From: a virus
Taxonomy: Duplodnaviria > Caudoviricetes
Direction: 5' to 3' (one strand)
DNA length: 64,000 bases
Virus record (IMG/VR): IMGVR_UViG_3300028048_000081
Coordinates: 32,001-96,000 of that record
Shown here: positions 5,688-62,203 of the stretch, piece after piece
Position numbering within the stretch: position 1 is the first letter of the stretch
Layout: every line of letters starts with the position of its first letter
Notes under the pieces: generated by a model
The model's database searches: none
The model's input: only the letters and a program-made list of their open reading frames with translations
What the model was told of the DNA's origin: nothing
Made by a program: the position numbers and the translations under genes

Positions 5688-7280
5688 ATGTCTGATAGAA
5701 ACCGTCTTTCAGCGGGAGATTATCTAGTTCCTTTACCAGAAGGAATACAGATCACATTACAATATGATGATCAGGGAGTAATCAAAAAGATATTTAGAGG
5801 ATACGAATCTAACGAAGTTTTAGAAGACTGTTCTGATATGTTTTTAGATCCTCTTGTATCTAATAAATTAATTCCAAATTTGATACCACTTAAACATGGG
5901 GCAACATATATTGAGGGAGTATTGAATACAAGTAATGAATGTTACGATTCGGGAGAACTTCCTGAATGTATTCAAGACAGTTTACAAAGTATGTTTTTAA
6001 AAGATCCTAATAGTTTTAAATTCTTTGCAATAAGTGTAAGAAGTTTAACTGCTATGTTTAGAGGATCAATAGCTGTAAGACAGTGGTTGAATTTTGTTAA
6101 ATTTAATCTACCCCCTGGATATCTTATTCCAGCAAAATTGGAGGGTACAGATGACAGCTATTTAACAAAATTGGAAGATCTTATAGGAGGAAGTAAGTAT
6201 ATATTTAATTATCCTAGGATACCAGAATATGTAATATTTCATAATCAGAATATGTTACACGGAACTTTTCATATAAAACAGACATCTATAAAGAAGATAG
6301 AAAAGATTGTAAACCATTCTGGTGTAATATCTGCAGAGTTACATACAGATTTAGGAAAAATTATTGTTCCTTATTCCAGTGTTGTTAATTTTGACCTTAA
6401 GAAGTCATCAAACATATTGTTAGATGAGTATGATAACATATTATATTCTAACTATTCTGGAAGATATAAGAATAAACATGCATCTAGTAGAATAACATGT
6501 GATTTTTGTGGGAAGATAATTGATGTACCAAAAACTGGTGTTGTAACTTGTTCGGATCCAAATTGCAATTCGAGATTGTATCCTAGAATAGAACAGTTCT
6601 TGACAACATTAAAACTTCCAATAATTTCATATGATAGATATAGAGAAATAACAGATAATGAAGGACCGGGATTTTCTATTCCAGATATACTTCTTATACA
6701 AGAATTTGAAGATGCAGATATTTCTGTAAGTCCTTCTGATCTTTTGAGAGCAATTGTTCCTATGTATGTTGAACCAGATTCTTCTCATATAAACAGATAC
6801 TGTAACAGCTGTAAAAATTCAATACACACTATTGAATACTACTTATCCCATCCGGAGAAGATTGAATTTGATTTAGGAGAAGATATATACAGATGTTCAA
6901 AGCATATTGTAAACTGGTTCGTTCAGTATCCTGAAAATCTTGTTGATTTTCAAACATTATTATATGATAAGAAAGTAAACGTAGATTCTCAAAATAAGAT
7001 GTTTAATGGACCACAGATATTTAGAAATAAAAATATTATGTTGACTGGTACTTTTTATCATGGTAGTGTTTCTGATATAGAATCAATACTTAAAAGTTAT
7101 GGAGGGTCAGTTGTTTCTGATTTCAATAACAAAGTAGATTGTATAATAATTGGAGGATTGCAAGAAAGAACAGATGGGAGTATAATAAGAGAGGGAAGAA
7201 ATAAACGAATTCCGATATTTGAAGAACAACAATTTTTTACTCAGTATGATATTGAATCAGATATGGCTGAGAACCTTTAA
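5688..7280 (+). CDS. NAD-dependent DNA ligase (LigA)-like protein lacking the catalytic lysine
   Basis: Motif I region PLPEGIQITLQY (canonical KxDG), C4 zinc finger CDFC...CSDPNC, C-terminal BRCT (NIMLTG...GGSVV...VDCIIIG...IPIFEE). Confidence 0.7.
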   Translation: MSDRNRLSAGDYLVPLPEGIQITLQYDDQGVIKKIFRGYESNEVLEDCSDMFLDPLVSNKLIPNLIPLKHGATYIEGVLNTSNECYDSGELPECIQDSLQSMFLKDPNSFKFFAISVRSLTAMFRGSIAVRQWLNFVKFNLPPGYLIPAKLEGTDDSYLTKLEDLIGGSKYIFNYPRIPEYVIFHNQNMLHGTFHIKQTSIKKIEKIVNHSGVISAELHTDLGKIIVPYSSVVNFDLKKSSNILLDEYDNILYSNYSGRYKNKHASSRITCDFCGKIIDVPKTGVVTCSDPNCNSRLYPRIEQFLTTLKLPIISYDRYREITDNEGPGFSIPDILLIQEFEDADISVSPSDLLRAIVPMYVEPDSSHINRYCNSCKNSIHTIEYYLSHPEKIEFDLGEDIYRCSKHIVNWFVQYPENLVDFQTLLYDKKVNVDSQNKMFNGPQIFRNKNIMLTGTFYHGSVSDIESILKSYGGSVVSDFNNKVDCIIIGGLQERTDGSIIREGRNKRIPIFEEQQFFTQYDIESDMAENL

Positions 7281-10909: not shown

Positions 10910-10920
10910 AACCTTATATA
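10910..10920 (+). promoter_or_regulatory. putative late promoter
   Basis: AACCTTATATA upstream of the sheath operon. Confidence 0.7.
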
Positions 10921-16945: not shown

Positions 16946-17134
16946 ATGATGTATAAGAATGATAAAGATTTGGTAGCGGATGAGTGTATTCGTGTAGCAG
17001 ATGATTTGTCTGAGTTATTAGATAAACTCTCAAAGCTTCCTGATGTGTATGATTATCTTGCAGAAGAAGAGATGAATGAATTAGGGGACGCTCATGACAT
17101 ATTATTTGATTTAAATTATTATTTAAAAAATTGA
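16946..17134 (+). CDS. small acidic protein (paralog of 17962..18132)
   Basis: AGGAGG RBS; shared LL..L...P...DY....EM..L.D..DIL pattern. Confidence 0.7.
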   Translation: MMYKNDKDLVADECIRVADDLSELLDKLSKLPDVYDYLAEEEMNELGDAHDILFDLNYYLKN

Positions 17135-17141
17135 TTTTCTA

Positions 17142-17170
17142 TTGACATCTGATAAAATATATTATATAAT
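17142..17170 (+). promoter_or_regulatory. consensus host sigmaA/sigma70 promoter
   Basis: TTGACA (17142-17147), 17-nt spacer, TATAAT (17165-17170), AT-rich upstream. Confidence 0.9.
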
Positions 17171-17633: not shown

Positions 17634-17945
17634 ATGAAAAGAGTAATAAAATCTTCATACTATTATGATGATGAAGAATACGATAGAGTAGATAGAATGG
17701 GGGATCCTAAGGAGATTGCTATTGCTGCGATTGCATACAATTATGGCATATCTAGAGAAGAAGCAATGAAGGAATACGAAGATATAGATGAAGAGAAATT
17801 AAGATCCTTCATTTCATATTATTTTCTTAGAGATATACCTGTAACTCCAGGAGGGAAAAATAATCATAAAAGTTTCAATAAAGAAGATTTTCAATCTTCT
17901 TCTGATGAGGCAGCACAGGATGTATGTGATGAATTATTTGGGTAA
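17634..17945 (+). CDS. tagged putative capsid-internal protein (MKRVIKSS)
   Basis: Shared N-terminal tag; acidic body. Confidence 0.65.
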   Translation: MKRVIKSSYYYDDEEYDRVDRMGDPKEIAIAAIAYNYGISREEAMKEYEDIDEEKLRSFISYYFLRDIPVTPGGKNNHKSFNKEDFQSSSDEAAQDVCDELFG

Positions 17946-17961
17946 TATTTAGGAGGATATT

Positions 17962-18132
17962 ATGGGAGATAAGGTTGAAGATGTAGCTTTAACATTAGGA
18001 GATCTTTTGACAGAAATGCAAGATGATCCTTCAATTTCTGATTATATTTCAAAAGATGAAATGGATAGATTGTGGGATTCTTATGATATTCTTATGGATG
18101 CATCTAAAATGATGGATCAGGATGAAGAATAG
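17962..18132 (+). CDS. small acidic protein, 56 aa (MGDKVEDVALTLG...DQDEE), paralog of 16946
   Basis: Manual translation; AGGAGG RBS; below the ORF-track cutoff. Confidence 0.75.
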   Translation: MGDKVEDVALTLGDLLTEMQDDPSISDYISKDEMDRLWDSYDILMDASKMMDQDEE

Positions 18133-18146
18133 AGAAGGAGTACATT

Positions 18147-18563
18147 ATGAAAATAATAAAAGCAAGTAGAACTTTTGATAAATGGTACGATCTATTGTCC
18201 AAAGAAGATCAGACCTGGGTAGATGATCTTGCAGATAGTGAAGGACTTCCGTATTATGATGATTGTTCTGAATCAGATTTAAATTTTCTGATGAGTGCAT
18301 ATCAAAATCATTTTGACAAGTTTGGTGCGGAAGAAGATCCGGATTATCTTAGAATCAAAAAGATATCAGATTTTCTAGATAAAGAATATCCTGATTCTGT
18401 AGAACCTGGAACAGATGGATATTTCCTCAAATGGGGAGATGAGACTGCTGTTCAGGAATATGGATATGATGAAGCACAAAGAATATGCGACGATATACTT
18501 GAGGAAACGGGTATAAATGTAAATATATCTGGAAACGGTGAATTTGTTGTAGCATATTATTGA
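18147..18563 (+). CDS. tagged putative capsid-internal protein (MKIIKAS); C-terminal domain paralogous to 23631
   Basis: Tag; PG..GY..KWG..T.V..YG..TGI motif. Confidence 0.65.
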   Translation: MKIIKASRTFDKWYDLLSKEDQTWVDDLADSEGLPYYDDCSESDLNFLMSAYQNHFDKFGAEEDPDYLRIKKISDFLDKEYPDSVEPGTDGYFLKWGDETAVQEYGYDEAQRICDDILEETGINVNISGNGEFVVAYY

Positions 18564-18585
18564 TAAGTTAGAAAGGTGATATATT

Positions 18586-19563
18586 ATGAAAGTTTATATT
18601 CATGCAGCAGAAGATGCTGATAAAAAAAAGTTAGCGAGAACAAGCGAAGATCCAAAAGTTCTTGCAAAATTGTCTGATGATGAGGGTATGGAAGTAAGAC
18701 TTGGAGTTGCAAATAACAAAAATACTCCGCCAGAAATTCTTGCAAAATTAGCCGATGATGAGAATCAGTATGTGAGACATGAAGTTGCAGATAATAAAAA
18801 CACTCCGGTAGAAGTTCTTGCAAGATTAGCTGATGATGAGGATCGGAGTGTGAGATGGTATGTTGCACAGAATCCAAGCACTCCAGCAGAAGCTCTTGCA
18901 AAATTAGCTGATGACGAGGATCCTGATGTGAGAACGATACTTGCATTAAATTCAAACACTCCTCCAGAAGCTCTTACAAGATTAGCTGATGATGAGTATT
19001 TTAAGGTGAGAGAATATGTTGCAGATAATTCAAACACTTCTCCAGAAGTTCTTACAAAATTAGCTGATGACGAGGATCCTGATGTGAGATGGTATGTTGC
19101 AAAAAATAAAAACACTCCAGCAGAAGCTCTTGCAAAATTAGCTGATGATAAGAATAAGAGTGTGAGACGAGAAGTTGCATATAATGAAAACACTCCGGCA
19201 GAAATCAAAGAGAAGTTAACACAAAAATCAAATAGAATAAACTGGAAATCAATTGTTAATCAAATTAAATCTGAAGGCGAAGACGGAAGAGATTCTCTTT
19301 ATGAGCAAACAAACGCCGGAATGTATATTGAAGGTTTACAAAATCAAGTAGAAGATAAATTAGGAGTATGGTTAGAACCCTCAATTGAAGGAGGAATGGG
19401 TGGAATCTGGATCTACTCAAACAAGGATGACTCAACGCTTGCAGAAAATATAGATTATGAAGGATTCAATGAAGATGTTCTTGATGCAGCTTGCAACTCC
19501 AAGAACAAAACAGAATTCTTAAAATGGTATAAATCTTATCTTGAAAGCTTGATCGGAGAGTAG
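18586..19563 (+). CDS. tagged HEAT/LRV-type repeat protein (MKVYIHAA)
   Basis: About 8 copies of a 24-aa repeat LAKLADDE..VR..VA.N.NTP.E. Confidence 0.8.
   Translation: MKVYIHAAEDADKKKLARTSEDPKVLAKLSDDEGMEVRLGVANNKNTPPEILAKLADDENQYVRHEVADNKNTPVEVLARLADDEDRSVRWYVAQNPSTPAEALAKLADDEDPDVRTILALNSNTPPEALTRLADDEYFKVREYVADNSNTSPEVLTKLADDEDPDVRWYVAKNKNTPAEALAKLADDKNKSVRREVAYNENTPAEIKEKLTQKSNRINWKSIVNQIKSEGEDGRDSLYEQTNAGMYIEGLQNQVEDKLGVWLEPSIEGGMGGIWIYSNKDDSTLAENIDYEGFNEDVLDAACNSKNKTEFLKWYKSYLESLIGE
18640..19200 (+). repeat. 72-bp coding tandem repeat (about 8 copies)
   Basis: Recurring cttgcaaaattagctgatga...gtgaga...gttgca...aacactcc units. Confidence 0.85.
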
Positions 19564-19578
19564 AAATAGGAGAAACAT

Positions 19579-19917
19579 ATGAAAAAAGTAATCATATCAA
19601 GAAAAACGAATTCTTCATATCTTAATTCGGTATTTGGAAGTTCAATAAGTTCTAGATATAATAAAGTAAGAAGAGTATTTTATGATGTAGCTAAGACCTG
19701 GAAAGATTCTGCCAATATAGATATTGAAGTTGCGGATGACGGTAGAGGTATAACATATCCAAATAAAAATAATTTTCCCTTCACACAACGTGTAGATGTC
19801 AAGATGGTACCAGAATATCATCTGTATAATAATTTACAAGATGAAATACTGGTGACAACAGATTTATCCGAACTTGAATCCACTATCTCTGATGTAGTTT
19901 CTGAAGATATCAAATAA
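19579..19917 (+). CDS. tagged putative capsid-internal protein (MKKVIIS...VFGSS)
   Basis: Tag variant; AGGAG RBS. Confidence 0.55.
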   Translation: MKKVIISRKTNSSYLNSVFGSSISSRYNKVRRVFYDVAKTWKDSANIDIEVADDGRGITYPNKNNFPFTQRVDVKMVPEYHLYNNLQDEILVTTDLSELESTISDVVSEDIK

Positions 19918-19961
19918 TGACCAAAATTCCAGAGGTATCATCATACCACACCATATATAAA

Positions 19962-19988
19962 ACCGTGAGAGAACTTAAATCTCACGGT
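19962..19988. terminator. hairpin between convergent genes
   Basis: ACCGTGAGA...TCTCACGGT. Confidence 0.55.
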
Positions 19989-20006
19989 CGTTTACTGTAA
20001 GGGCCA

Positions 20007-20660
20007 TTATTTGAAGGCGTAGACGCGTTGACCACAGTCATATAGTGGTACGTACCCTGAATTTAACATATGTTCTCTAGAAAAATGCTTTTGACGACGA
20101 GACGCGTCAGAAATTCTATCGTTATTTCGTATCCACCATAGTGTTTTCTGATTGTCACGGATATATTTCATTCCGATATATTCATAATCTTTAAAATTTT
20201 CAAATGACATGTTAACATAAGCTACGATATTACTTATTCCAAAGTTAGATGCTTCTTGAGATAATATATCATATCCATGTTTAATATCATATGTTGGTAA
20301 CATCCACATCCGAGATAATTCTGCATCATATTTTTTGTTTCGTGATTTTTTGAAAGTCATGATGCAGTAAATTTCATTATCTTTGATAAGACCTAGTGCT
20401 AAAACATTTCCTTTAGGTGACTTGAAGGGGTGATATTCATCTAACCATCTGTTTGCAACATTAATATCTAATCTGTATGTATTGAGAGTATGTCCGTCAA
20501 CAACATGTATTCGAGGTTCTTGATAAAATATCAAAATATCTTTTTTGGTTTCAAATGTATGTTGTCGTTTTTGTTGAACTTCTTTAAGCATACATACATT
20601 CTTAACACCATATCTTTTCAAACATGTTTGTTGTCTTTTTTCATTAGAGTTAATTTTCAT
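20007..20660 (-). CDS. Hef-like homing-endonuclease-family remnant: CLxRYGV repeat plus GNAT/Mom-like domain, no nuclease domain seen
   Basis: CLKRYGV, ELSRMWM, IVAYVN, LYDCG; the only substantial minus-strand gene. Confidence 0.6.
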   Translation of the reverse strand: MKINSNEKRQQTCLKRYGVKNVCMLKEVQQKRQHTFETKKDILIFYQEPRIHVVDGHTLNTYRLDINVANRWLDEYHPFKSPKGNVLALGLIKDNEIYCIMTFKKSRNKKYDAELSRMWMLPTYDIKHGYDILSQEASNFGISNIVAYVNMSFENFKDYEYIGMKYIRDNQKTLWWIRNNDRISDASRRQKHFSREHMLNSGYVPLYDCGQRVYAFK

Positions 20661-20751
20661 TAAATAAAAAATCCAGATACTCTTTCAAAGTAGTGTTTCT
20701 AGCTTCATCAAAATATTTATTTTTAGATTCTCGCAGATATTTCCATTCCAT
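20650..20751 (-). CDS. 33-aa leader ORF (MEWKYLRESKNKYFDEARNTTLKEYLDFLFNEN)
   Basis: AGGGGG RBS on the minus strand; overlaps the start of the 20660 gene. Confidence 0.4.
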   Translation of the reverse strand: MEWKYLRESKNKYFDEARNTTLKEYLDFLFNEN

Positions 20752-20883
20752 CTTAAGTCCCCCTACAATTATATTATAACGAATTTTTATTTGTAAATAA
20801 ATATATAATATAAAAATACTTTTAAAGGTATCAAATCTTATATATCTACATAAAATATAGATTATTTATAAGGAGGTAGAAAA

Positions 20884-20907
20884 ATGTTTAGTCCTTTACA
20901 AATGGGT
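20884..20907 (+). CDS. tail tube protein exon 1 (MFSPLQMG)
   Basis: AGGAGG RBS, ATG at 20884, in-frame TAG at 20911 inside the intron; 1-mismatch late promoter at 20834-20844. Confidence 0.75.
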
Positions 20908-21277
20908 AACTAGTGCCCTTCATATTGAGTAATCAGTATGAACTACCGAGTTAATTGCTTTGAATCCCTAAAGCTCTCTTGCTACAGTGAATTCAGAAAT
21001 GAAAAACACGATAGAGCGAAAGCAGAAAAAAGTAGAGAGATGTTACATGGTTAAATCCTAAATAATATTGCAATGGGTGTTTAGCAGCCAAACTTCTAAT
21101 CAGATTGTATGAAGTAGGTCCAACGATCATCTCCTTGAGGGAGAGTAGAACTGCAAGCAGATGGCAGAAGAAAAATTCGGGCCCTAGTTACATAGGGATA
21201 AGATATGATCTCATCTTCAATGAAAGTTGAAGCAGTATAAACGGTACAGACGTTGCGAATCTGTACGAAGATAATGT
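20908..21277 (+). ncRNA. group I self-splicing intron (IA2-like), about 370 nt, no internal ORF; boundaries 20908-21277 or 20907-21276
   Basis: P1 GGGU/GCCC; P2 CATATTGA-GTAA-TCAGTATG; P3 CCGAGTT/AATTCGG; P4 TTGCT/AGCAG; P7 GATCAT/ATGATC; P7.1 and P7.2 hairpins; P8 CCCTA/TAGGG; P9 CTTCAAT-GAAA-GTTGAAG; 3' end GAAGATAATG. Confidence 0.9.
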
Positions 21278-21799
21278 ACCAACCATATGCTTGGGGTAGA
21301 TAATTATGTTCCATTAACAACAAACAACTTTGAGGTTAGAATATACAACATGGATGGGAGTTCCCCATCAGAATTTTCAGAACTTCTTACATTATCGACA
21401 GATGAAGTAGGAGATATTCAAGAAGAACAAGATTCTATTGTTGTACATTATGGTAATGGTCTTATCAAGTTTCCAAGTAAAGTAACATTTGGAGATGTTG
21501 ATTGGACTCTCAACTGCTATTGTGAACCAAATGTCCTTGGAGCACTTAGAGAGTGGAGAAAACAAGTTTATGATCCTGATACAGAGAGAATGGGTCTTCC
21601 GTCAGAATACATGAGACAAGTATTCTTCTTAAGGTATGATGGTCAAGGAAATATCAGAGATGGCGTGAGATGCCCGGGAACTTGGATCGGAGCACTTGAT
21701 AACGGTGCAATGTCTCAGCAAGGCGGAGATGTCGTTAAAGTTAGAGTTCCGTTTGTTATTTCTAGAGCGATTTATATGACACCTGAAGATTTGAGATAA
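21278..21799 (+). CDS. tail tube protein exon 2 (T4 gp19-like)
   Basis: NNFEVRI, VHYGN..IKFPSKVTFGDV, LREWRKQVYDP.T..MGLPSEY, WIGALD. Confidence 0.85.
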   Translation, partial: TNHMLGVDNYVPLTTNNFEVRIYNMDGSSPSEFSELLTLSTDEVGDIQEEQDSIVVHYGNGLIKFPSKVTFGDVDWTLNCYCEPNVLGALREWRKQVYDPDTERMGLPSEYMRQVFFLRYDGQGNIRDGVRCPGTWIGALDNGAMSQQGGDVVKVRVPFVISRAIYMTPEDLR

Positions 21800-21833
21800 G
21801 TTGGAATTCTGGAAAATAATTATATATACATAT

Positions 21834-21870
21834 ATAAATAAAGGTCAAATTACGGCCTTTATTTATTTTT
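21834..21870 (+). terminator. rho-independent terminator after tube
   Basis: ATAAATAAAGGTC...GGCCTTTATTTAT followed by a T run. Confidence 0.65.
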
Positions 21871-21900
21871 TTGTATTTTTAAATGTGCTCCTATCCAGTT

Positions 21901-21911
21901 AACCTTTTATA
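21901..21911 (+). promoter_or_regulatory. putative late promoter
   Basis: AACCTTTTATA. Confidence 0.65.
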
Positions 21912-21944
21912 TGTACGAATCGTTATCACATATGAGGAGTACAT

Positions 21945-23591
21945 ATGAAGCCTAAAAAATGTAAAGAATGTGGAAAAATATTTTTCCCTAAAAGTGGATC
22001 CCAATTGTATTGCAATGGGCCTCATGAATCTATTTGTGTAATATGTGGCAAGAAATTTCCATATACATGCAGACCGACTGAAAAACCTAAAACTTGTTCA
22101 AAAGAATGTCAAGAGAAGTTACGATCGAGGACAGCATTTGAAAAATATGGAGTTAAAAATGTTTCTGAATTAGATTCTGTTAGAAAGAAGATAAGTGAAA
22201 GAAATAGTTCTAAAGAAGTTGATCTAAAAAGACGAAAAACAAACTTAGCCCATTGGGGAGTAGATAATCCTTCCAAGAATAAAGATATTCGTGAGAAGTT
22301 ATCTGCTGTAATGAAAACTGAAAGGTATTTATCTGGTAGAGAGACCACATGTTTAGAAAAGTATGGTTATCGCAGTCCTATGCAATCAGATGTAGTTAAA
22401 GATAAACAGAGAAAAACATGTTTAGAACGATATGGTATGTCAGGGCATCCCCATACAGCGGAAGATTTTTCTAGAATGATGATAGATAGTTCTAAATGCA
22501 AAGATTATATTATGTTTAGATCGGATCCAAAGAAATATATTGAAGATCATTATTCTACGCCCCCATCCATATATGAACTTAAACGGGACTTAGGAGTTAC
22601 AGATACACCAGTATATGATATATTAATTGCAAAGAATTGTAGGGATTTATTGCTTAGCAGTTATAGCTATATGGAGAAAGATGTATCAGATTTCATAGTA
22701 TCGTTAGATCCAAACATTGATATAGTTAGACATGATAGAAAAATTATCCAACCTCAAGAATTAGATATATATTTACCAGAATATAAATTAGGTATTGAGT
22801 GTAATCCAACCGCTACTCATAATTCATCATTTAAAGATCCATGGGGAGGGGACCCTAAATATTACAAGTATCATCAGAATAAATCCATGAAATCTGGCGA
22901 CGCGGGGGTTTTTCTGTTTCATATATTTGGATATGAATGGGTGAATCGTAGGCATGTAATTGAATCTATGCTTGCAAATCTATTAGGTAAGAACAAATAT
23001 AAGTATGGTGGTAGAGATACATATGTATGCAAAGTATCTCCAGAAGAAAGTAAACAATTTTTAAACGATAATCATCGTCAGGGTAGTACAGTATCTAAGG
23101 TTCAAATTGGTCTAAGATTAAAATCTAACGATAAATTAGTATCCATAATGACGTTTGGTCATACACGTAATACTATAGGAAAAACGGATGATTCTACAGA
23201 AAATACCTGGGAACTTTCTAGATTCTGCAATAAACTGTATACTACAGTAAATGGGGGTGCAAGCAAGCTGTTCAAATATTTTATTGAAAATTATTCATTT
23301 GATAAGATTATTTCATTTTCAGATATAGCTCATACTAAAGGTACGCTATATGAAAAATTGAATTTTCATCAGATTTCTATATCTGCTCCAAGTTATGTTT
23401 GGTGTGATGGATATGATAACATATACTATAATAGAGTTTCTTGCCAGAAATCAAATCTTAAGAAATTATTGAAAGATGATAGCATTGATATTGAAAATCA
23501 ATCCGAAGCAAAGATAATGGAAGCACATAAATTTGCTCGAGTATATGATTGTGGAGTAATCAGATGGGAATATAATTATCATGAACCTTAA
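21945..23591 (+). CDS. free-standing Hef-like homing endonuclease (zinc fingers, CLEKYG repeats, PD-(D/E)xK/DUF559-like nuclease, GNAT/Mom-like C-terminus)
   Basis: CKECG/CVICG; EKYGV, HWGV, CLEKYG, CLERYG; ELDIYLPEYKLGIECN; WELSRFC..GASKL..ISFSD..GTLYEKLNF..YDCG. Confidence 0.75.
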   Translation: MKPKKCKECGKIFFPKSGSQLYCNGPHESICVICGKKFPYTCRPTEKPKTCSKECQEKLRSRTAFEKYGVKNVSELDSVRKKISERNSSKEVDLKRRKTNLAHWGVDNPSKNKDIREKLSAVMKTERYLSGRETTCLEKYGYRSPMQSDVVKDKQRKTCLERYGMSGHPHTAEDFSRMMIDSSKCKDYIMFRSDPKKYIEDHYSTPPSIYELKRDLGVTDTPVYDILIAKNCRDLLLSSYSYMEKDVSDFIVSLDPNIDIVRHDRKIIQPQELDIYLPEYKLGIECNPTATHNSSFKDPWGGDPKYYKYHQNKSMKSGDAGVFLFHIFGYEWVNRRHVIESMLANLLGKNKYKYGGRDTYVCKVSPEESKQFLNDNHRQGSTVSKVQIGLRLKSNDKLVSIMTFGHTRNTIGKTDDSTENTWELSRFCNKLYTTVNGGASKLFKYFIENYSFDKIISFSDIAHTKGTLYEKLNFHQISISAPSYVWCDGYDNIYYNRVSCQKSNLKKLLKDDSIDIENQSEAKIMEAHKFARVYDCGVIRWEYNYHEP

Positions 23592-23594
23592 ATA
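23584..23594 (+). promoter_or_regulatory. putative late promoter
   Basis: AACCTTAAATA upstream of tagged ORF 23631. Confidence 0.65.
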
Positions 23595-23630
23595 TATATG
23601 AAACATTATTCTATATAGGAAGGTATAAGT

Positions 23631-23891
23631 ATGAAACGAGTTATTACATCCGGAACAAGAAGTCCACGTAAAGAAAATATAAGGAAGATATGTGATTACA
23701 TGGATTGGAATCTTCCTACATTTTCTGATCCTGGATCATACGGGTATTCATGTAAATGGGGCGGTAGAACTTTAGTTGATAAGTATGGTATAGAACAGGT
23801 TGAAGAGTGGATACAAGATATAAAAGACGGAACTGGAATAGAATGTAAATTAACTCGTTCCGGAAAATTAATTGTTCCTTACGCAGAATAG
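23631..23891 (+). CDS. tagged putative capsid-internal protein (MKRVITSG), paralog of the 18147 C-domain
   Basis: Tag; alignable by eye to 18147. Confidence 0.65.
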   Translation: MKRVITSGTRSPRKENIRKICDYMDWNLPTFSDPGSYGYSCKWGGRTLVDKYGIEQVEEWIQDIKDGTGIECKLTRSGKLIVPYAE

Positions 23892-23933
23892 ATATACACA
23901 TCTTGAAAATTTTATTGGATAGAGGTTCAAACA

Positions 23934-24338
23934 ATGTATAGATACATAAGATCATCCGAAATAACAAATTCTAGAATAAGAAAATGTAAGAAATTAGTTC
24001 GTGATTATATATGGCAGTGTTTTTCTCAAGGTGGGGAATATTTCAATGATCCAGAAATGTTATCTAATATTGAATATATGAAATGGTATGATTCTGACGA
24101 AGATATTAGTTGGGCAGAATATGTATACAAACATAGACATGATATATTTGATAAGTATATTTTAGATAAAATAGAAAATGATCCTGAAATAAAAACAGAA
24201 GAAGAGCAAAACTGTATGATTGATTATTTTAATAATTTACAGCCGTCAGATTATAATCGGATACTATATCTTAAAAGAGATTCTACTAAAGATGGTATAT
24301 CTAATAGAATTCGTAGAATAAGGGAATATGATAAGTAG
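23934..24338 (+). CDS. tagged putative capsid-internal protein (MYRYIRSS)
   Basis: Tag; GAGG RBS. Confidence 0.65.
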   Translation: MYRYIRSSEITNSRIRKCKKLVRDYIWQCFSQGGEYFNDPEMLSNIEYMKWYDSDEDISWAEYVYKHRHDIFDKYILDKIENDPEIKTEEEQNCMIDYFNNLQPSDYNRILYLKRDSTKDGISNRIRRIREYDK

Positions 24339-24361
24339 ACATTCAACATAGTATTTTCATC

Positions 24362-24396
24362 AAAGAGATCTTCTAATCAGGAAGGTCTCTTTTATT
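24362..24396 (+). terminator. rho-independent terminator
   Basis: AAAGAGATCTTCT-AATC-AGGAAGGTCTCTTT followed by a T tract. Confidence 0.65.
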
Positions 24397-24422
24397 ATAC
24401 TGATTCGTTATTTATTATGTAG

Positions 24423-24433
24423 AACCTTGTATA
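24423..24433 (+). promoter_or_regulatory. putative late promoter
   Basis: AACCTTGTATA. Confidence 0.7.
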
Positions 24434-24479
24434 AATTTAGAAGAAATATTTAAGTTAAAATAGAAAGAAGGACGTAGAG

Positions 24480-24893
24480 ATGAAGTTATATGTTCGTTCA
24501 GCTTTTGATGACAACATGAATTTTGTTGCAGTAATAGATTCAAAAGGCTATGAAGATTATTCAAGTATAATACCGATATTGAATGCTGAAATTGACAGAT
24601 ACAATAGCATATTTGATAGAGTTGAATCTTTACCTCCAGAAGAGTATGAACAGATTGAAAACAATAATGAGGATTATAAGAAGTTTGTAGATACCTTTCA
24701 AAAATATTATGAATATATAGATAGGATGGAAGAAGCATTAGATTCTGATGAATTCATAGTAGATGAAAACAATAATCATAATGTAGATAACAGTATAACT
24801 GTTAGAAATCGTATATTTACATATGAAGATTTAATTGACATACTTTCTGAACTGAAAGAATGTCGTATCAATTTTGAAGATGAGGTGAAATAA
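24480..24893 (+). CDS. tagged putative capsid-internal protein (MKLYVRSA)
   Basis: Tag; acidic. Confidence 0.65.
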   Translation: MKLYVRSAFDDNMNFVAVIDSKGYEDYSSIIPILNAEIDRYNSIFDRVESLPPEEYEQIENNNEDYKKFVDTFQKYYEYIDRMEEALDSDEFIVDENNNHNVDNSITVRNRIFTYEDLIDILSELKECRINFEDEVK

Positions 24894-24894
24894 A

Positions 24895-25080
24895 ATGACA
24901 GTAGGAGAATTAAAAGAAATTGTAAATTCTATTCCGTCAGAAGATGATGACAAGAGAGTATTTGAATTTCGCGGTAATCGGTATTATGATTTTGATCTTT
25001 ACGGGTTAGATGAATGTGAAGTACAGGCTGAGTATTACGTTTATCAAGGATACTGCGTAGATATGGACCCAGGATATTGA
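24895..25080 (+). CDS. small phage hypothetical protein (MTVGELKE type)
   Basis: GAGGTG RBS; untagged. Confidence 0.65.
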   Translation: MTVGELKEIVNSIPSEDDDKRVFEFRGNRYYDFDLYGLDECEVQAEYYVYQGYCVDMDPGY

Positions 25081-25091
25081 TAAGGAGGTTT

Positions 25092-25727
25092 ATGATGAAA
25101 AGAGTTATTACAAGTACTGTTCAAAGTATGGATACAAAGGATTTTCAATCTTATTTTGAAAACAAATATGGATTTGAATTAGATTTTGCAAGAAGAACAG
25201 TAGAGGGTTTGAATGAAAAATACAGTGGGGAAATAATTTGTATTCCTACAGGTATTGGGCAGGCGATGCCATCCTCATATTCTAACTATGATTGTCTTCG
25301 TAATATGTTAGGAGAATCGAAAGATTATGAATTGACAGAAGATGATGTATTAGAAGTAATGAAGACGATAAAACAGGATTTTCAAAATGATCATCCGATG
25401 TCCTCTACAAGTGTTAGGTTCCGTGGAAATCTTCGTCAGATTCATATTAGAATATCGTCATCTTATGAATTAACAGATATTAATGATATTACTAAAGCAT
25501 GTGTTAAGGGGACAAATAAGATAGTAAAAAGTACTGAAACTAAATGTAATAAAGTAATGGATACATTGGATGAATTGCTTGATTATTCTGAAGGAAATGT
25601 AAAATTAACATCTGAAGGATATAATGAAATATCTGAAAATTTGGATAGCCTTATAAATTATATAGATGTTAACTTAATTGATAGAATAAATAAATATAAG
25701 AGCAATTTAAAAAACCGAGTTGAATGA
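25092..25727 (+). CDS. tagged putative capsid-internal protein (MMKRVITST)
   Basis: AGGAGG at 25083-25088 places the start at 25092/25095 rather than the TTG at 25077. Confidence 0.65.
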   Translation: MMKRVITSTVQSMDTKDFQSYFENKYGFELDFARRTVEGLNEKYSGEIICIPTGIGQAMPSSYSNYDCLRNMLGESKDYELTEDDVLEVMKTIKQDFQNDHPMSSTSVRFRGNLRQIHIRISSSYELTDINDITKACVKGTNKIVKSTETKCNKVMDTLDELLDYSEGNVKLTSEGYNEISENLDSLINYIDVNLIDRINKYKSNLKNRVE

Positions 25728-25764
25728 GTACATACTGTTTTAGCTCTAGGGGAGAGATATTAAT

Positions 25765-26019
25765 ATGTATAGATATATAAGATCAGATTCTGAAGGGGAA
25801 ATTATCAGCTGGGATTCATTATCCGGATCAGATCAACTTGCTGCAGAAAGAGCATCTGAATACATGAGTGAAGGAATGAGTATCGAGGATGCAGTCCGTA
25901 AAGGATGTATGGATATTTCTGAAGGCAATTCAGAACCTGAATATGAAAATGAAGATTTCTATTTAGAGGAACCAGATTACAATAAAGTATTGAAATACAT
26001 GAAGGGTAACGAAAGGTAG
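25765..26019 (+). CDS. tagged putative capsid-internal protein (MYRYIRSD)
   Basis: Tag; acidic. Confidence 0.65.
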   Translation: MYRYIRSDSEGEIISWDSLSGSDQLAAERASEYMSEGMSIEDAVRKGCMDISEGNSEPEYENEDFYLEEPDYNKVLKYMKGNER

Positions 26020-26023
26020 CAGT

Positions 26024-26248
26024 ATGAAAAAATACATAAAATCTTCAGAAGAATGGGAAGAATGGGACGGAGTATTCACTCCGGAATTCATAATGGAATA
26101 TTCTGATATAGAAGATGAAGATGAAGCACAAAGACTTTCTGATTATCTGTATGAACATGAATATGATTCAGGATTTTCAACACCTGAAGAATTTCTTGAA
26201 ACATTTGATTTAGATGAATTATACGATGATATGATTAATGAACAATAG
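26024..26248 (+). CDS. tagged, extremely acidic protein (MKKYIKSS), possible DNA mimic
   Basis: About 26 D/E among the 66 residues after the tag, only one Arg. Confidence 0.65.
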   Translation: MKKYIKSSEEWEEWDGVFTPEFIMEYSDIEDEDEAQRLSDYLYEHEYDSGFSTPEEFLETFDLDELYDDMINEQ

Positions 26249-26262
26249 ATGAGGAGAATAAA

Positions 26263-26604
26263 ATGAATGTTATTCATTCAAATATTTCAAGTAGTGCAAA
26301 ATGCATAGAAACATATAAAGGATATAGAATATATTTCGATGAAGGAACTGCAACATATCATATTTTCTTACATGATACAAAAATAGAATTTCCAGATATG
26401 TCGGAAGTAACAGAATACATAGACGATATTTCATTAGAAGACACAGAAGATCTAAAAGAATATGAAGTAAGATACATAGACGCAGATGATATTACACACA
26501 GTACAGATGTAGTTGCTGTATCTGATAAAGATGCGATGTCTAAAGCATGCTCAATGTTAGGAAGCAACTGTTATAGAATAATAGATGTATCCGAATTAAA
26601 ATAG
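26263..26604 (+). CDS. tagged putative capsid-internal protein (MNVIHSNISSS)
   Basis: Tag variant; GAGGAG RBS. Confidence 0.55.
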   Translation: MNVIHSNISSSAKCIETYKGYRIYFDEGTATYHIFLHDTKIEFPDMSEVTEYIDDISLEDTEDLKEYEVRYIDADDITHSTDVVAVSDKDAMSKACSMLGSNCYRIIDVSELK

Positions 26605-26617
26605 ATAGGGAGGCAAT

Positions 26618-26863
26618 ATGTATAAATATATAAAATCTAATTATGCTGGATCGCAACCTATGAAAATATATAATGTATACTTCAAAGATCAGTTTTATGG
26701 TCAAGTTGAAGCAGAATCCGAGGATGATGCCTGGTATCAGTACGAAGATGTAATTCCAGGGGATGAATTGGCTTCGGTTGATCATGATTATCTTCCAGAT
26801 TATATTTTTGTTGTACCTGCGGATGAAGATGATATTGAAGGCTGCGATAAAGTATCATGGTAA
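26618..26863 (+). CDS. tagged putative capsid-internal protein (MYKYIKSN)
   Basis: Tag; GGAGG RBS. Confidence 0.65.
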   Translation: MYKYIKSNYAGSQPMKIYNVYFKDQFYGQVEAESEDDAWYQYEDVIPGDELASVDHDYLPDYIFVVPADEDDIEGCDKVSW

Positions 26864-27041
26864 AGAAGAAATAGTACCTGTTTTAGCAAGGTTCATCTGC
26901 CACTACGGTTATGAGGGACAAACATTTCATAACAAGAAAGATGCAGCAGTTCTTGCACTTGAACTCTTAGAAGAAATGACCGGAACATATTGGGATCCTA
27001 CTCAAGAAGAGTTTGACGATATATTATATAGCATATATTAG
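26823..27041 (+). CDS. overlapping +1-frame ORF without a clear RBS; possibly the frameshifted C-terminus of 26618
   Basis: Protein-like acidic sequence (KEEIVPVLARF...EEFDDILYSIY) fills the gap to 27056. Confidence 0.4.
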   Translation: MKMILKAAIKYHGKEEIVPVLARFICHYGYEGQTFHNKKDAAVLALELLEEMTGTYWDPTQEEFDDILYSIY

Positions 27042-27055
27042 AAAGGTGTGTAATC

Positions 27056-27322
27056 ATGAAGCGAGTTATAATTTCTTCTACAATAGCGGATATGGAGAAA
27101 GATATCAAGAAGAGTAAGAATAAGCTCAAGAAGAAACCATTAGTAGAAAACTTCGGACAAGATGAAGTAAGACGTATAAGTGATAAGTATTTTGATCTTC
27201 AGATAGAAAACTATCAGCAATACAGCTCACTTATCAGAGAATTTTCAGATTGGTGTGCAAATTATGAAGGGGACAACATAAGATCGTCTGTTCATTCGTC
27301 TGAAGATATTCATAAAGGATGA
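27056..27322 (+). CDS. tagged putative capsid-internal protein (MKRVIISS; also IRSS/VHSS at the C-terminus)
   Basis: Tag at both ends. Confidence 0.65.
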   Translation: MKRVIISSTIADMEKDIKKSKNKLKKKPLVENFGQDEVRRISDKYFDLQIENYQQYSSLIREFSDWCANYEGDNIRSSVHSSEDIHKG

Positions 27323-27323
27323 T

Positions 27324-28451
27324 ATGTTAGATTACAGATACGCACCAGAATTAGAATCAAAAGTAATATCTAATATAAAATTAGATTATAATTGGATATT
27401 AGTAAATGATGAATCCAAAGTTAAATCTCATTCCATTGTATTCATATATGAAGATACAGATAGGAGATTTTTAGATTCGCTTTTTAGATATTCCGATATC
27501 ATATTAGTATACATAAATAGAAAAATAGATGATAGTTTAAAAGATTTCAGGAGTATAGAATTAAAAGCAATTTCAGATTCCAATCGTATGATACGGTATC
27601 CTGAAGAAGTAACACTATATTTAGAGTCAGGTTTAAAGACCGTTATAAATAATGAAGATAAATTATTGTTAAAACATAAGTCAAAAGAAATGAAGAAAGA
27701 TAACTGGTATGAACGGTATCTTTGTAATGACGGGCAAGCAAATCTAGATGATACACCAAAAGATATAGTATATGTATTAAAGAATGATGTTAAAGCAAAT
27801 GAATTAAGGTACAGTCTGAGATCTGTAGTTAAAAATTTCAAATTCAATCGCATATTCTTCTATGGGGGATGTCCGAAAAACATTCACCCAGATGTTTATG
27901 TAAATTATGAACAGTCAGGAAAAACTAAATATGCTAGAACACGTGGAATGTTTAAAAGTATATTTACAAATAATGATATAACAGAAGACTTCTGGTTATT
28001 CAATGATGATTTTTTCATATTAAGACCTATTGATAGAGTACCTTATATAATAGATGGAACAGTTCAAAAGTATAGGGATGCGATTAGGAAAAGATATGGA
28101 AGAGATTCTGTTTACACTATTAGATTAAGTAAATCAATAGATATACTTGAGAAACATGAACTAGACACTTTAAATTATGAATGTCATGTCCCTATGTTAA
28201 TAAATAGAAACAAAGGCCGAAGACTTCTTAGAGTATTTGATGATGATGCAATATTCAGAAGTACTTACGGGAACTATTTTAAAGTAGGGGGAATGATACA
28301 GAAGGATGTAAAGATCATAAGTTTAAAGAGTATTCCTGAAAATAATGATATATTGCTTTCTACATCAGATGAAAGTTTTAAACACGGAAAAGTTGGAAAA
28401 TATATAAAGGATATGTTCAGCGATAAATGTAGATATGAGGAGGGTATTTAA
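27324..28451 (+). CDS. Stealth-family (hexose-1-phosphate transferase-like) protein
   Basis: DIVYV, ELRYSLRSV.KN, FWLFNDDFF, HVPM motifs of the Stealth conserved regions. Confidence 0.7.
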   Translation: MLDYRYAPELESKVISNIKLDYNWILVNDESKVKSHSIVFIYEDTDRRFLDSLFRYSDIILVYINRKIDDSLKDFRSIELKAISDSNRMIRYPEEVTLYLESGLKTVINNEDKLLLKHKSKEMKKDNWYERYLCNDGQANLDDTPKDIVYVLKNDVKANELRYSLRSVVKNFKFNRIFFYGGCPKNIHPDVYVNYEQSGKTKYARTRGMFKSIFTNNDITEDFWLFNDDFFILRPIDRVPYIIDGTVQKYRDAIRKRYGRDSVYTIRLSKSIDILEKHELDTLNYECHVPMLINRNKGRRLLRVFDDDAIFRSTYGNYFKVGGMIQKDVKIISLKSIPENNDILLSTSDESFKHGKVGKYIKDMFSDKCRYEEGI

Positions 28452-28825
28452 TGAAGAAATATATTAAATCATCCAGTGGTTATAATAAAGTAGAAATAAT
28501 GAGTTCTGAGGATGGCTTGTATACACTTTATGAAGAAGAAGGTGTGGGAAGAAATGATACTCGTTATACAGGCCTTATAGTAGAATCTTTTGGTACTGCA
28601 TATGATAATGTAATAGAAATAAGACCTATAGCGAAAAATTCTCCAGAATTCAATGGTGGAAAAGTAAAGTACGAATATTCCGGATGTTATATTTCGCATG
28701 GTATGAACGGGCATACAGACACATTAGAAGAAACAGAACAGTATATTTCAGATCTTCAATCTGCTGTCAAGTTTGCTAAAAGAATAAACAATTACATTCG
28801 AGATGCTTGGACGAGGATATTTTAA
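28451..28825 (+). CDS. tagged putative capsid-internal protein (MKKYIKSS)
   Basis: Tag. Confidence 0.65.
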   Translation: MKKYIKSSSGYNKVEIMSSEDGLYTLYEEEGVGRNDTRYTGLIVESFGTAYDNVIEIRPIAKNSPEFNGGKVKYEYSGCYISHGMNGHTDTLEETEQYISDLQSAVKFAKRINNYIRDAWTRIF

Positions 28826-28848
28826 TTAATAAGGAGTGTATGATAATT

Positions 28849-29148
28849 ATGAAAAAGTATGTTAGATCTAGTAGTCAAGATGTACAGGGAATTGTAGACA
28901 AGTGCAATGAAAATGTCCCGGAACTGCTTTCTAAATTGATGGATGCGTTATATGGATTACAATCATTACAGGAAGATATGGATCCGGTAAGTGATTATGA
29001 AGTGTCAATTCGACATAAGAATGGTCAAGAATATTATTCTGGTCAGAATGAATTTGAAGATTTAGATGCTTGTAAACACAATATAGACGGAGCAGTTGAT
29101 TCTATAAATGATGCAATTGAATATCTTTCGGACTGGAAGGGCATGTAA
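28849..29148 (+). CDS. tagged putative capsid-internal protein (MKKYVRSS)
   Basis: AAGGAG RBS at 28831; start re-assigned to ATG 28849. Confidence 0.65.
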   Translation: MKKYVRSSSQDVQGIVDKCNENVPELLSKLMDALYGLQSLQEDMDPVSDYEVSIRHKNGQEYYSGQNEFEDLDACKHNIDGAVDSINDAIEYLSDWKGM

Positions 29149-58064: not shown

Positions 58065-59450
58065 ATGAAGAATAAAGAAGAGAAAGAAATAAAAGGACAG
58101 GACAATATATCCAGTAAGGCCTCTATACTTGGAACATTTGAGGGTGAATGCGCAGATGCAAGTATCACCAATAAGAATGGGCTAGATATTACAAAGGAAG
58201 TTTGGGATACTGTATTTGCTTCGGAAGAGTATAAGGATGCAATTGAACTTGGTCATTATATAGGTTTCCTAGGCCATCCAGAAGATCCAAATTGCATGGA
58301 TTTTGAGCATGCATGTATTGTAATGAAGGAAGGCCATATAGAAGATGACGGAAAAGTGTATGGAAAATTTGACCTTATAGATACTCCTGTAGGAAAAATT
58401 GTAAAATCATTTCAAGATGCTGGAGTTCAGTTTGGTATATCAGTAAGAGGGGCAGGAGATATAATAGATAATTCTGTTGACCCTGAAACATTTGTTTTCA
58501 GAGGATTTGATTTAGTTTCATTTCCTGCATATCCAGATGCAATTCCTACGTTTTCAGAAGTAGCAGCTTCATCGGATGCAGAAACACAGAAGAAATATAA
58601 AACGATATGTGCTGCAGTTAAGAATAATCTGGAAAGTTTAAATACTTGCGATGCTATTGATGTTATTCAGCCCCAATTTGCTAAGCAATCCGAAGAATAT
58701 CAACTTCTGGAAGACAGAAGGAAAGAGCTTTCTGGATGTGAATCGGAAGATACCGATGAAGATATAGATATAAGAGATGATCAGATACAAGGATTAACTA
58801 CATTATATATGGATTCTGTATCAAAGATTAAGAATTTAGAGGAAGAGAATTCAGAGTTAAAATCTCAACTTTCTAGAAATAATGTATTGTCATCAAGAAG
58901 AATAAAAGCAATTGAAAGAATTGTAAGTAATCAAAAATTAGTATTTGATAGAACAGCAAAAGAAAAAATACTAGCAAACAAAAAGATTATGAAGGACAAG
59001 TTATATCAGGCGCAGGTAAAGACGAAAACTCTTCGTACTGCTAACCTTAAATATAAACAGAGGGTAGAGGCAGCAGATGATTCTATTCATCAAAAAGATG
59101 CGATAATTTCTAGTTTAAAGACAAAACTTTCAGAAACTGTCGAAAGTAATACATCTTTGAAACAGAAAACGTCTAACTTAGATGTCAAGGTCAAAAAACT
59201 TAAAGATGAAATCACCGCTTCTCAGAAATTGATCCAAGAGTATCAGGATGCATATGGAAATATGTATGCAAATGCTTTAGGAGTTCACCTCGATAATGTA
59301 ACTATCAATTCTTCAACTACTGTTTCAGAATTGAAAGAAAGCATTTCAAGTGCTGCATCCGAAAGACGTAAATCTTCTATTAATTCCACATCGGAAGATA
59401 TAGCAGATACAGTTACACCGGATACAGAATCAGAAATTGTTACATTATAA
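58065..59450 (+). CDS. prohead protease (T4 gp21-like) fused to a coiled-coil scaffold
   Basis: NKNG, GFLGHP, DTPVGKIV, GISVRGAG, FDLVSFPA, then about 290 aa of coiled coil. Confidence 0.88.
   Translation: MKNKEEKEIKGQDNISSKASILGTFEGECADASITNKNGLDITKEVWDTVFASEEYKDAIELGHYIGFLGHPEDPNCMDFEHACIVMKEGHIEDDGKVYGKFDLIDTPVGKIVKSFQDAGVQFGISVRGAGDIIDNSVDPETFVFRGFDLVSFPAYPDAIPTFSEVAASSDAETQKKYKTICAAVKNNLESLNTCDAIDVIQPQFAKQSEEYQLLEDRRKELSGCESEDTDEDIDIRDDQIQGLTTLYMDSVSKIKNLEEENSELKSQLSRNNVLSSRRIKAIERIVSNQKLVFDRTAKEKILANKKIMKDKLYQAQVKTKTLRTANLKYKQRVEAADDSIHQKDAIISSLKTKLSETVESNTSLKQKTSNLDVKVKKLKDEITASQKLIQEYQDAYGNMYANALGVHLDNVTINSSTTVSELKESISSAASERRKSSINSTSEDIADTVTPDTESEIVTL
59043..59053 (+). promoter_or_regulatory. 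putative late promoter for the major capsid gene, inside the scaffold-coding region
   Basis: AACCTTAAATA. Confidence 0.55.
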
Positions 59451-61472: not shown

Positions 61473-62183
61473 ATGAAAATGCAGGAGATAATAGATCAAA
61501 TCACTTTCATGCTCGGTATCCCCGCTAACGAAAATGTAGAAGATATTCAACCTGAAAAAGCAGTACTTATTGCATTTCAAGAGTTGAAAAGATATATGAG
61601 AACACCTGTTGATAAAACGGTCCCGTTTTCTACTAGATTAGATCTAAAGAAACTGGGAATTAAAACAAAAAGAGTGTTGGGTGTTCAAGCGGCATATCCT
61701 AGGATCGGTCTTACAATGAGTTCTATAGACAGCGGAAATGTATTCCAAGTTGCTGCTGCAGTTAATACTTATAGCGCAATCGGTAATACATCTTCTATAA
61801 ATATAGATCCTATAATGACTGAAATGGCTATGGCTCAAGTTAGAAATACATTATCTACTGACTTCCAATGGTCATTTGATGCAGCAAATGATGTTATCTA
61901 TTGTACGCATCGAGACCCACGTCCATCTGTTGTAACTGTTCGGTATGTACCTGATTTTCAGGATGTTTCCGAAATAAAGAATAACACATGGATAAATTAT
62001 CTTATCCGGTTGAGCGAAGCTAATTTGAAAAAAGCATTAGGACGCTCACGGTCAAAATATAAAATAGAGGGTTCTAATGTATCTCTTGATGGTGATACTC
62101 TATTATCCGAAGCAAATGCGGAACTAGAAGCAATCCGGGAGGAATTAGAAGCTCATAAAGATAAGTTAGTTGTACTAAATTAA
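61473..62183 (+). CDS. neck/head-tail adaptor protein (gp13-like)
   Basis: KKALGRSRSKY...VSLDGDTLLSEA..ELE...EEL. Confidence 0.75.
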   Translation: MKMQEIIDQITFMLGIPANENVEDIQPEKAVLIAFQELKRYMRTPVDKTVPFSTRLDLKKLGIKTKRVLGVQAAYPRIGLTMSSIDSGNVFQVAAAVNTYSAIGNTSSINIDPIMTEMAMAQVRNTLSTDFQWSFDAANDVIYCTHRDPRPSVVTVRYVPDFQDVSEIKNNTWINYLIRLSEANLKKALGRSRSKYKIEGSNVSLDGDTLLSEANAELEAIREELEAHKDKLVVLN

Positions 62184-62203
62184 TGCTAATAGGAGGATAT
62201 GAT

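Follow-up and report, generated by a model that had tools for sequence, protein, structure and literature searches.

We analysed a stretch of 64,000 nucleotides of phage DNA (the window), which comprises bases 32001–96000 of the contig IMGVR_UViG_3300028048_000081, a single phage record of 124,241 bp with a GC content of ~33% and with genes almost all on the + strand. Coordinates are window positions unless marked as genome positions. In the window, 15 + strand open reading frames (ORFs) lying between 17634 and 29148 begin with the sequence M-K-[KR]-[YV]-I-[KR]-[SA]-[SA] or a near variant of it, which we term the tag. By analogy with the capsid-targeting sequence (CTS) of phage T4, we hypothesize that the tag is a propeptide of seven residues that would be removed by a head protease of altered specificity, and we assign this reading a probability of about 0.62. 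The tag ends in the cut motif that we infer for the head protease, and the tagged proteins are therefore probably loaded into the capsid in the manner of the T4 internal proteins. The initial annotation had proposed both the CTS-like tag and a cleavage rule of [IV]-x-[SA] followed by a small residue, and this core idea is supported by three lines of evidence: a head module with gp21- and gp23-family proteins, a change at two processing sites throughout the clade, and the occurrence of a tag ending in the motif on at least 74 unrelated protein families.

All 15 of the tagged starts claimed earlier are present as described, with corrections to individual entries. Each is preceded, 5–12 nt upstream, by a GGAGG-like ribosome-binding site, while the rest of the upstream DNA is unconserved. 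Twelve of the ORFs share the register M-K/Y-K/R/L/V-V/Y-I/V-x-S/A-x. In two others, 18147 (MKIIKAS) and 26263 (MNVIHSN), the core [VI]-I-x-[SA] is shifted one residue earlier, and 19579 (MKKVIISR) has an atypical Arg directly after the motif. The ORF formerly entered at 25092 is indeed tagged, but its start is most likely the ATG at 25095 (MKRVITST), since this is the codon that the Shine-Dalgarno spacing fits. The tagged ORFs are as follows:

17634–17945, + strand: tagged ORF of 103 amino acids (aa), MKRVIKSS, an acidic orphan
18147–18563, + strand: tagged ORF of 138 aa, MKIIKAS, register one residue shorter; C-terminal domain homologous to 23631
18586–19563, + strand: tagged ORF of 325 aa, MKVYIHAA, an LRV/HEAT repeat protein (PF01816, E 2.8e-47)
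19579–19917, + strand: tagged ORF of 112 aa, MKKVIISR
23631–23891, + strand: tagged ORF of 86 aa, MKRVITSG, paralogous to 18147 in the C-terminal portion of the latter
23934–24338, + strand: tagged ORF of 134 aa, MYRYIRSS
24480–24893, + strand: tagged ORF of 137 aa, MKLYVRSA
25095–25727, + strand: tagged ORF of 210 aa, MKRVITST, start set by the spacing of the ribosome-binding site
25765–26019, + strand: tagged ORF of 84 aa, MYRYIRSD
26024–26248, + strand: tagged ORF of 74 aa, MKKYIKSS, 39% Asp plus Glu
26263–26604, + strand: tagged ORF of 113 aa, MNVIHSN, short-register variant
26618–26863, + strand: tagged ORF of 81 aa, MYKYIKSN
26823–27041, + strand: possible 16th tagged ORF, MKMILKAA, uncertain, as it begins before the preceding gene has ended and lacks a clear ribosome-binding site
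27056–27322, + strand: tagged ORF of 88 aa, MKRVIISS
28451–28825, + strand: tagged ORF of 124 aa, MKKYIKSS
28849–29148, + strand: tagged ORF of 99 aa, MKKYVRSS

A position matrix built from the tags of the window matches 12 N-termini in this genome and none of 631 internal Met positions. It had been allowed at the outset that the motif might be equally frequent at the starts of replication genes; in a count made by eye, 15 of the 20 + strand array genes are tagged, as against none of the 58 genes in the first 42 kb of the genome, its replication part (Fisher p = 3.5e-12). A search with the tail tube protein yielded 39 related IMG/VR loci, many of which carry the tag on different ORFs. One complete and independent relative, G004 (162.8 kb), was left out of the construction of the matrix; 25–30 of its 211 genes are tagged, compared with 0–2 of 708 internal Met positions, and the tagged genes form two clusters located as in the genome studied here. 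The relatives G005 and G003 have 4–5 tagged genes each (in G005, four at a score of at least 8) and no internal matches, and for Bacillus phage HSE3, which served as a control, the matrix finds none of 112 genes tagged. In the whole of IMG/VR, a strict DNA pattern for MKRYIK[SA][SA] recovers 61 stretches, which are concentrated in a few dozen contigs, most of them large. The tag was not found in the head-module contigs of relatives with Glu-type processing sites (see below) or of the intermediate relative L135, fragments that span head genes only. No paper was returned by a full-text literature search with six tag strings.

Past the end of the window, at genome positions 99.6–107.8 kb (locus L055:3677-11774), there is a second run of very acidic ORFs. 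Their leaders are looser (MKIVSS, MKRLSRINAA, MKMKRVVSN, MKRIASSS, MKIKKSRIVAA) and join a basic stub to a following [IV]-x-[SA]-[SAN]. This run begins downstream of a sigma-70-like promoter with 11 of 12 matching positions at genome position 97321, and in G004 a tagged cluster occupies the equivalent location, downstream of the capsid gene.

The 85 tags in the canonical register give the consensus M-K-R-[YV]-I-[KR]-[SAC]-[SA], with Cys rare at position 7 and without any preference from residue 9 onward. Codon choice varies at every position of the tag in these 85 genes (Arg AGA, CGA or CGT; Ile ATT, ATA or ATC; Ser TCA, TCT, TCC or AGT), which bears out, over a far larger set, the earlier statement that the conservation is at the level of the protein. 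Two other kinds of signal were considered and rejected: a lipoprotein or secretion signal is ruled out, as the tag lacks a hydrophobic stretch and seldom has Cys at position 7, and the boundary of a recombination cassette acting at the DNA level is ruled out, as neither the upstream DNA nor the codons are conserved.

The proteins behind the tag are, as had been noted, mostly unrelated. An all-against-all BLASTP comparison of the array bodies connects a single pair, 18147 and 23631 (E 4e-15), and when this genome and related IMG/VR contigs are pooled, 93 distinct tagged proteins form 74 BLASTP clusters; one cluster, with 13 members among the relatives, consists of true paralogues. Of 81 tagged proteins scanned against Pfam, five contain a domain: LRV/HEAT repeats in three, a BspA-type LRR in one and a YodL-like domain in one. 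No family of known function was found in PHROGs for any of the tagged or interspersed ORFs of the array, and neither PHROGs nor Pfam reveals sequence similarity of the tagged proteins to T4 IPI, IPII, IPIII or Alt. A word-indexed homologue search with 18147 returned nothing beyond one copy of 97% identity, and 25095 has no usable match in the ESM Atlas (template modelling (TM) score of 0.40 or below). The description of the bodies as mostly acidic also holds (isoelectric point 4.05–6.2), although the median isoelectric point of the genome is 5.0 and the untagged small ORFs of the array are just as acidic.

These data bear on a simpler explanation, namely that the tagged genes are fast-diverging paralogues whose first codons are kept for the sake of expression, through A-rich initiation or translational coupling, and that there is no peptide signal. 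Such an explanation would account for the tandem arrays, for the second codon being AAA in 70 of the 85 tags and for the A-richness of the first codons, and true paralogues do occur, namely the pair in the window and the cluster of 13 in the relatives. However, among the bodies are Pfam folds that are unrelated to one another and have homologues in bacteria (LRV/HEAT, BspA LRR and YodL-like), the amino acids are kept while synonymous codons vary freely, and untagged neighbours in the array have equally good ribosome-binding sites. The presence of the tag on unrelated Pfam folds excludes simple paralogy and explanations at the DNA level, and we consider this expression-based account very improbable. 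From these observations, we regard the status of the tag as a genuine and portable peptide signal, carried by unrelated proteins throughout the clade, as close to certain.

The same window encodes the elements of a T4-like head module:

58065–59450, + strand: prohead protease of the T4 gp21 family, with the protease domain at residues ~20–165 and a coiled-coil, scaffold-like C-terminal part
59484–60938, + strand: major capsid protein of the gp23 family (Pfam PF07068, Gp23, 72 bits, match from residue 87)

The protease scores 28.1 bits against Pfam Peptidase_S77 (PF03420), just above the cut-off of 27. A phmmer search with the full protein against the sequences of the Protein Data Bank gives chance coiled-coil matches only, and a family profile is needed to reach the T4 gp21 structure, 5JBL: a profile of 12 family members matches it at E 3e-12, and the His and Ser motifs are conserved. 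An AlphaFold2 model of the protease domain, which is mediocre (mean predicted local distance difference test (pLDDT) score of 61, from an alignment of six sequences) and was used for the fold match alone, has 5JBL as its only strong Foldseek match (probability 1.0, E 1e-4). Given the long coiled-coil C-terminal part, protease and scaffold appear to be fused in this phage. The capsid protein carries a variable and strongly basic N-terminal segment ahead of its conserved part (residues 1–66, nt 59484–59681), which we predict from its sequence to be a propeptide.

The predicted processing sites of these two proteins can be compared with the tag. T4 gp21 cleaves after L/I-X-Glu (PMC9026906). The capsid propeptide of 66 residues contains one Glu and four [IV]-x-[AS]-[AS] motifs, and the capsid protein is more enriched in this motif than any other protein of the genome. 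The last of the four, I-T-A followed by A-T-N-T, lies at the homologue of the Glu-type maturation site, and three to four such motifs are kept in five relatives even though the propeptides have diverged. We surveyed the capsid family with an exhaustive phmmer search of 1.84 billion representatives. In the close clade and in one relative of 35% identity, the propeptides have 2–6 small-type and 0–1 Glu-type motifs, and those of the close clade are strongly basic (net charge +9 to +15); the propeptides of distant gp23-like proteins are mostly neutral, with 2–6 [LIV]-x-E motifs and 0–3 small-type motifs, usually none. When the sequences are aligned at the capsid boundary, the distant relatives show [LIM]-x-E followed by A-T-Q-x-S-D-I and this clade shows [IV]-[TMR]-[AGS] followed by A-T-N-T-S-N-I. 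Since the Ala-Thr after the boundary is nearly invariant, the site is the same one, with the Glu at the position preceding the cut (P1) replaced by a small residue.

The junction between the protease and its scaffold part has an equivalent difference: it reads V-A-A-S-S in this phage (residues 166–170, conserved) and [VI]-[AS]-[AS]-S-[ST] across the small-type clade, whereas five Glu-type relatives have [LVI]-x-E there and T4 has I-T-E-S. Glu is not found at the inferred P1 of the tags, of the capsid propeptide or of the junction, where Ser, Ala or Gly stands instead. Both homologous sites have switched from [LIV]-x-Glu to [IV]-x-small, and precisely in this clade. A candidate for the responsible residue lies in the protease itself. 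In T4 and in all Glu-type relatives, an Arg follows the catalytic His at a distance of 3–4 residues (a few more in HSE3), as in H-P-E-D-R; the six close-clade proteases have Pro at this position (H-P-E-D-P), and L135 lacks it. We propose that the Arg is the residue that reads the P1 Glu, and hence a possible determinant of specificity.

Just downstream of the capsid gene, the proteins encoded at 62183–62527 and 62600–63787 have longer basic leaders ending in I-T-A-G (at residue 15) and V-E-A-G, respectively, and may be further substrates of the protease.

The tag ends with Ile or Val, then Lys or Arg, then Ser, Ala or Cys, and then Ser or Ala, which is the same [IV]-x-small motif as that of the capsid maturation site and of the protease junction. 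Conservation stops exactly at residue 8, the residue after the inferred cut. By analogy with T4, we hypothesize that the basic and aromatic stub M-K-R-Y would direct the protein to the core of the assembling prohead and that the gp21-family protease, the putative processing enzyme of the tag, would then cut after residue 7 (P3 Ile or Val, P2 Lys or Arg, P1 Ser, Ala or Cys, before Ser or Ala), so that the mature protein would remain in the head and would probably be delivered with the DNA. The dimensions of such a tag have precedents: T4 virion proteins shed N-terminal propeptides of 7 to 65 residues, that of Alt being seven residues long, and ten residues of T4 IPIII are enough to load foreign proteins, including green fluorescent protein and beta-galactosidase (PMC9026906). 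Co-folding of the protease domain with tag residues 1–40 gave a score of 0.50 (0.02, 0.50 and 0.65 in three runs), compared with 0.01 for the best control, with at least 87% contact agreement between runs and a partner pLDDT of at least 48. Of 80 solved complexes, 58 reach the mark used for such predictions, as do 2 of 110 mismatches; at scores of 0.60 or below it is reached by only 7 of the 80 solved complexes and by both of the passing mismatches. The predicted complex lends weak support to the pairing of protease and tag.

Several observations weigh against the propeptide hypothesis. Motifs of the form [IV]-x-small-small are common, at ~1% of positions, and the chance that a conserved tag of eight residues contains one is ~1/20. 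The residue before the motif is Tyr or Val in the tags, compared with Ser or Ala in the capsid propeptide sites, so the tag comprises more than a site of cleavage; M-K-R-Y is without a counterpart in the capsid sites, and that it acts separately in targeting is assumed by analogy with T4. The bodies of the tagged proteins are acidic, unlike the T4 internal proteins, which are basic. The array is placed in the tail module with the head genes not adjacent, a perfect host-type promoter precedes its first sub-cluster, such that the synthesis of some tagged proteins may be early rather than timed with the head, and there is no close cultured relative, the best cultured match to the capsid protein being of 26% identity.

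Some of these points would suit a different explanation, in which the tag is a signal for another factor, such as a host protease, a ClpXP-like degradation system or a phage chaperone, with no loading into the capsid and with the likeness to the capsid site being coincidental. The core motif is short and common, the conserved M-K-R-Y is missing from the capsid propeptide sites and the host-type promoter permits early expression. A precedent exists in Staphylococcus phage 80alpha, in which phage proteins share an N-terminal motif, mimicking ribosomal protein L27, that is a substrate of the host protease Prp. On direct reading, however, the tags are unlike the L27/Prp motif. Moreover, the tag is found only in phages with a small-residue capsid site and junction and is absent from the Glu-type control, and its conservation ends precisely one residue past the inferred cut. 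For these reasons, we consider it unlikely that the tag serves another factor.

If capsid loading by the tag is accepted, it may still be asked what the loaded proteins do. They could act as additional scaffold or core for assembly and be degraded or expelled before the DNA is packaged, rather than being ejected as effectors. In T4, the core proteins gp22, gp67 and gp68 are gp21 substrates that for the most part do not remain in the head (PMC9026906), and strongly acidic bodies would be repelled by the packaged DNA. Yet acidic foreign proteins fitted with the T4 CTS are retained in the head and delivered (PMC9026906), and the repertoire, which ranges from 4 to 30 genes in a genome and has 74 clusters for 93 proteins, seems too variable for a function in assembly. 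The strict motif is absent inside most of the tagged bodies, so only the tag would be removed, which also counts against an expendable core. We judge a scaffolding role to be quite unlikely. Under the propeptide hypothesis, the tagged proteins might take part in host takeover or in countering host defences, although this is a guess.

The transcription signals around the array are of two kinds. The motif [TA]GAACCTT-N-TATA occurs on the + strand only and between genome positions 42.9 and 118 kb only, the structural half of the genome. Its GAACCTT-N-TATA copies lie at window positions 10910, 13811, 23584, 24423, 29215, 46871 and 54959 and, beyond the window, at genome positions 99270, 106332, 115051 and 118050; they precede structural genes as well as 23631, 24480 and 29275. 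We regard the motif as a candidate for a phage-specific, perhaps late, promoter. A perfect TTGACA-17-TATAAT occurs at only two sites on the + strand of the genome, one of which precedes the first sub-cluster, and some of the tagged genes may therefore be transcribed early by the host polymerase. The earlier claim that late-promoter motifs precede the sub-clusters thus holds for 23631 and 24480, but not for the first sub-cluster, which has the host-type sequence. A further terminator-like hairpin, in addition to the one listed here, lies 3' of the tail tube gene.

17142–17170, + strand: perfect TTGACA-17-TATAAT, sigma-70-type promoter-like, before 17217 and the first sub-cluster
23584–23600, + strand: GAACCTT-N-TATA before the second sub-cluster, candidate phage promoter
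29175–29202, + strand: strong terminator-like hairpin with a 12-bp stem and a T-run, closing the second sub-cluster

The tagged array lies on the structural strand, between the sheath and tube genes and a tape-measure-like gene. Profile searches identified the following structural genes, to which we add two genes that interrupt the array:

3755: terminase
7304: portal-like protein
11312: tail sheath
13857: long fibre-like protein
21287: tail tube
38729: baseplate wedge protein
20007–20660, - strand: likely homing-endonuclease gene
21945–23591: likely homing-endonuclease gene, encoding a 548-aa zinc-finger protein

The tail tube gene and the two likely homing-endonuclease genes break up the array at 19918–23591. 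An untagged, basic protein of 375 aa is encoded within the array at 27324–28451, its start and stop overlapping the tagged neighbours; it matches PHROG 7999, of unknown function, and has a sub-threshold match to Stealth_CR2, of a family of sugar-phosphate transferases. Two small, untagged and very acidic array ORFs, 16946–17134 and 17962–18132, are paralogues of one another (35% identity over 48 residues, E 7e-9). Outside the array, a protein of 530 aa with a C-terminal BRCT domain (Pfam E 6.6e-6) is encoded at 5688–7280, between the terminase and portal-like genes, a gene order that is the same in L135. A nucleotide search with 4.3 kb of the window gave no match to cultured phages. The host is likely a member of the Bacillota, to judge from the strong GGAGG sites.

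Taking these results together, we tentatively propose, with rather less confidence than for the propeptide itself, that in a clade of uncultured myoviruses of ~120–250 kb the head protease has been retuned from Glu to a small residue at P1, as in herpesviruses and possibly through replacement of Arg by Pro next to the catalytic His, and that a single seven-residue tag loads 4 to ~30 effectors per genome, from at least 74 families, for delivery with the DNA. If this is true, a string of seven residues would identify the capsid-carried proteins of a whole clade from their sequences, and the set so identified, dozens of orphan families, would hold prime candidates for host-takeover and anti-defence effectors, making this an effector-injection system far broader than that of T4. 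The protease would be the first of the gp21 family not to cut after Glu; our literature searches returned no report of such a protease or of this tag, and with a candidate specificity residue in hand, the specificity of the family becomes directly testable. With its matching protease, the tag would also offer a second means, orthogonal to the T4 CTS, of packing foreign proteins into phage heads.

Among known systems, phage 80alpha is similar in having a short shared N-terminal motif that is removed by a specific protease. Its motif, L-N-L-Q-x-F-A, is cut by the host enzyme Prp and is known only from structural (capsid and scaffold) proteins; unlike the tag, it marks no repertoire of cargo. The assemblins of herpesviruses resemble the protease described here in being fused N-terminally to a scaffold, from which they can be released at a site that ends the protease domain, and in their specificity: the pseudorabies virus sites YLQA-T and VQA-S are cut after hydrophobic-x-Ala and before Ser or Thr (PMC4498786). 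The Foldseek search also returned weak matches to the pseudorabies virus and human cytomegalovirus proteases (E 0.1–0.7, TM score 0.3–0.4, for a model with a pLDDT of 61). However, herpesviruses belong to another virus realm and have no N-terminal cargo tags, and by sequence and fold the protease of this phage belongs to the T4 gp21 family; the likeness in specificity is probably convergent.

The phages phiKZ, 201phi2-1 and SPN3US also have many head-internal proteins with N-terminal propeptides that are cut by a diverged gp21 homologue, and phiKZ-type propeptides contain several redundant cleavage motifs, like the capsid propeptide here (PMC9026906, PMC10052503). The head proteases of phiKZ and SPN3US cleave after S/A-X-Glu (PMC9026906, PMC10052503). 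The phiKZ-type systems thus differ in cutting after Glu (S/A-X-E, A-X-E), and in that their propeptides are long and protein-specific, with no single short tag shared among them. S/A-X-Glu cutting by a protease of the gp175/gp245 type was not found in this phage, in which there is no Glu at P1 and the protease matches S77 and T4 gp21.

The T4 tag, MKTYQEFIAE, has a different sequence from that of the tag described here. The two systems, that of T4 IPI, IPII, IPIII and Alt and the one proposed here, have features in common: in both the head module contains a gp21-family protease and a gp23-family capsid protein, and in both a short propeptide (7–19 residues in T4, predicted in this phage) that ends in the P3-x-P1 motif of the protease is carried by otherwise unrelated, dispensable and fast-changing proteins (PMC9026906). 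They also differ in that the residue at P1 is Glu in T4 as opposed to the predicted Ser, Ala, Gly or Cys here, and in that T4 has three to four tagged genes per genome, compared with 15 to ~30 in the phages considered here.

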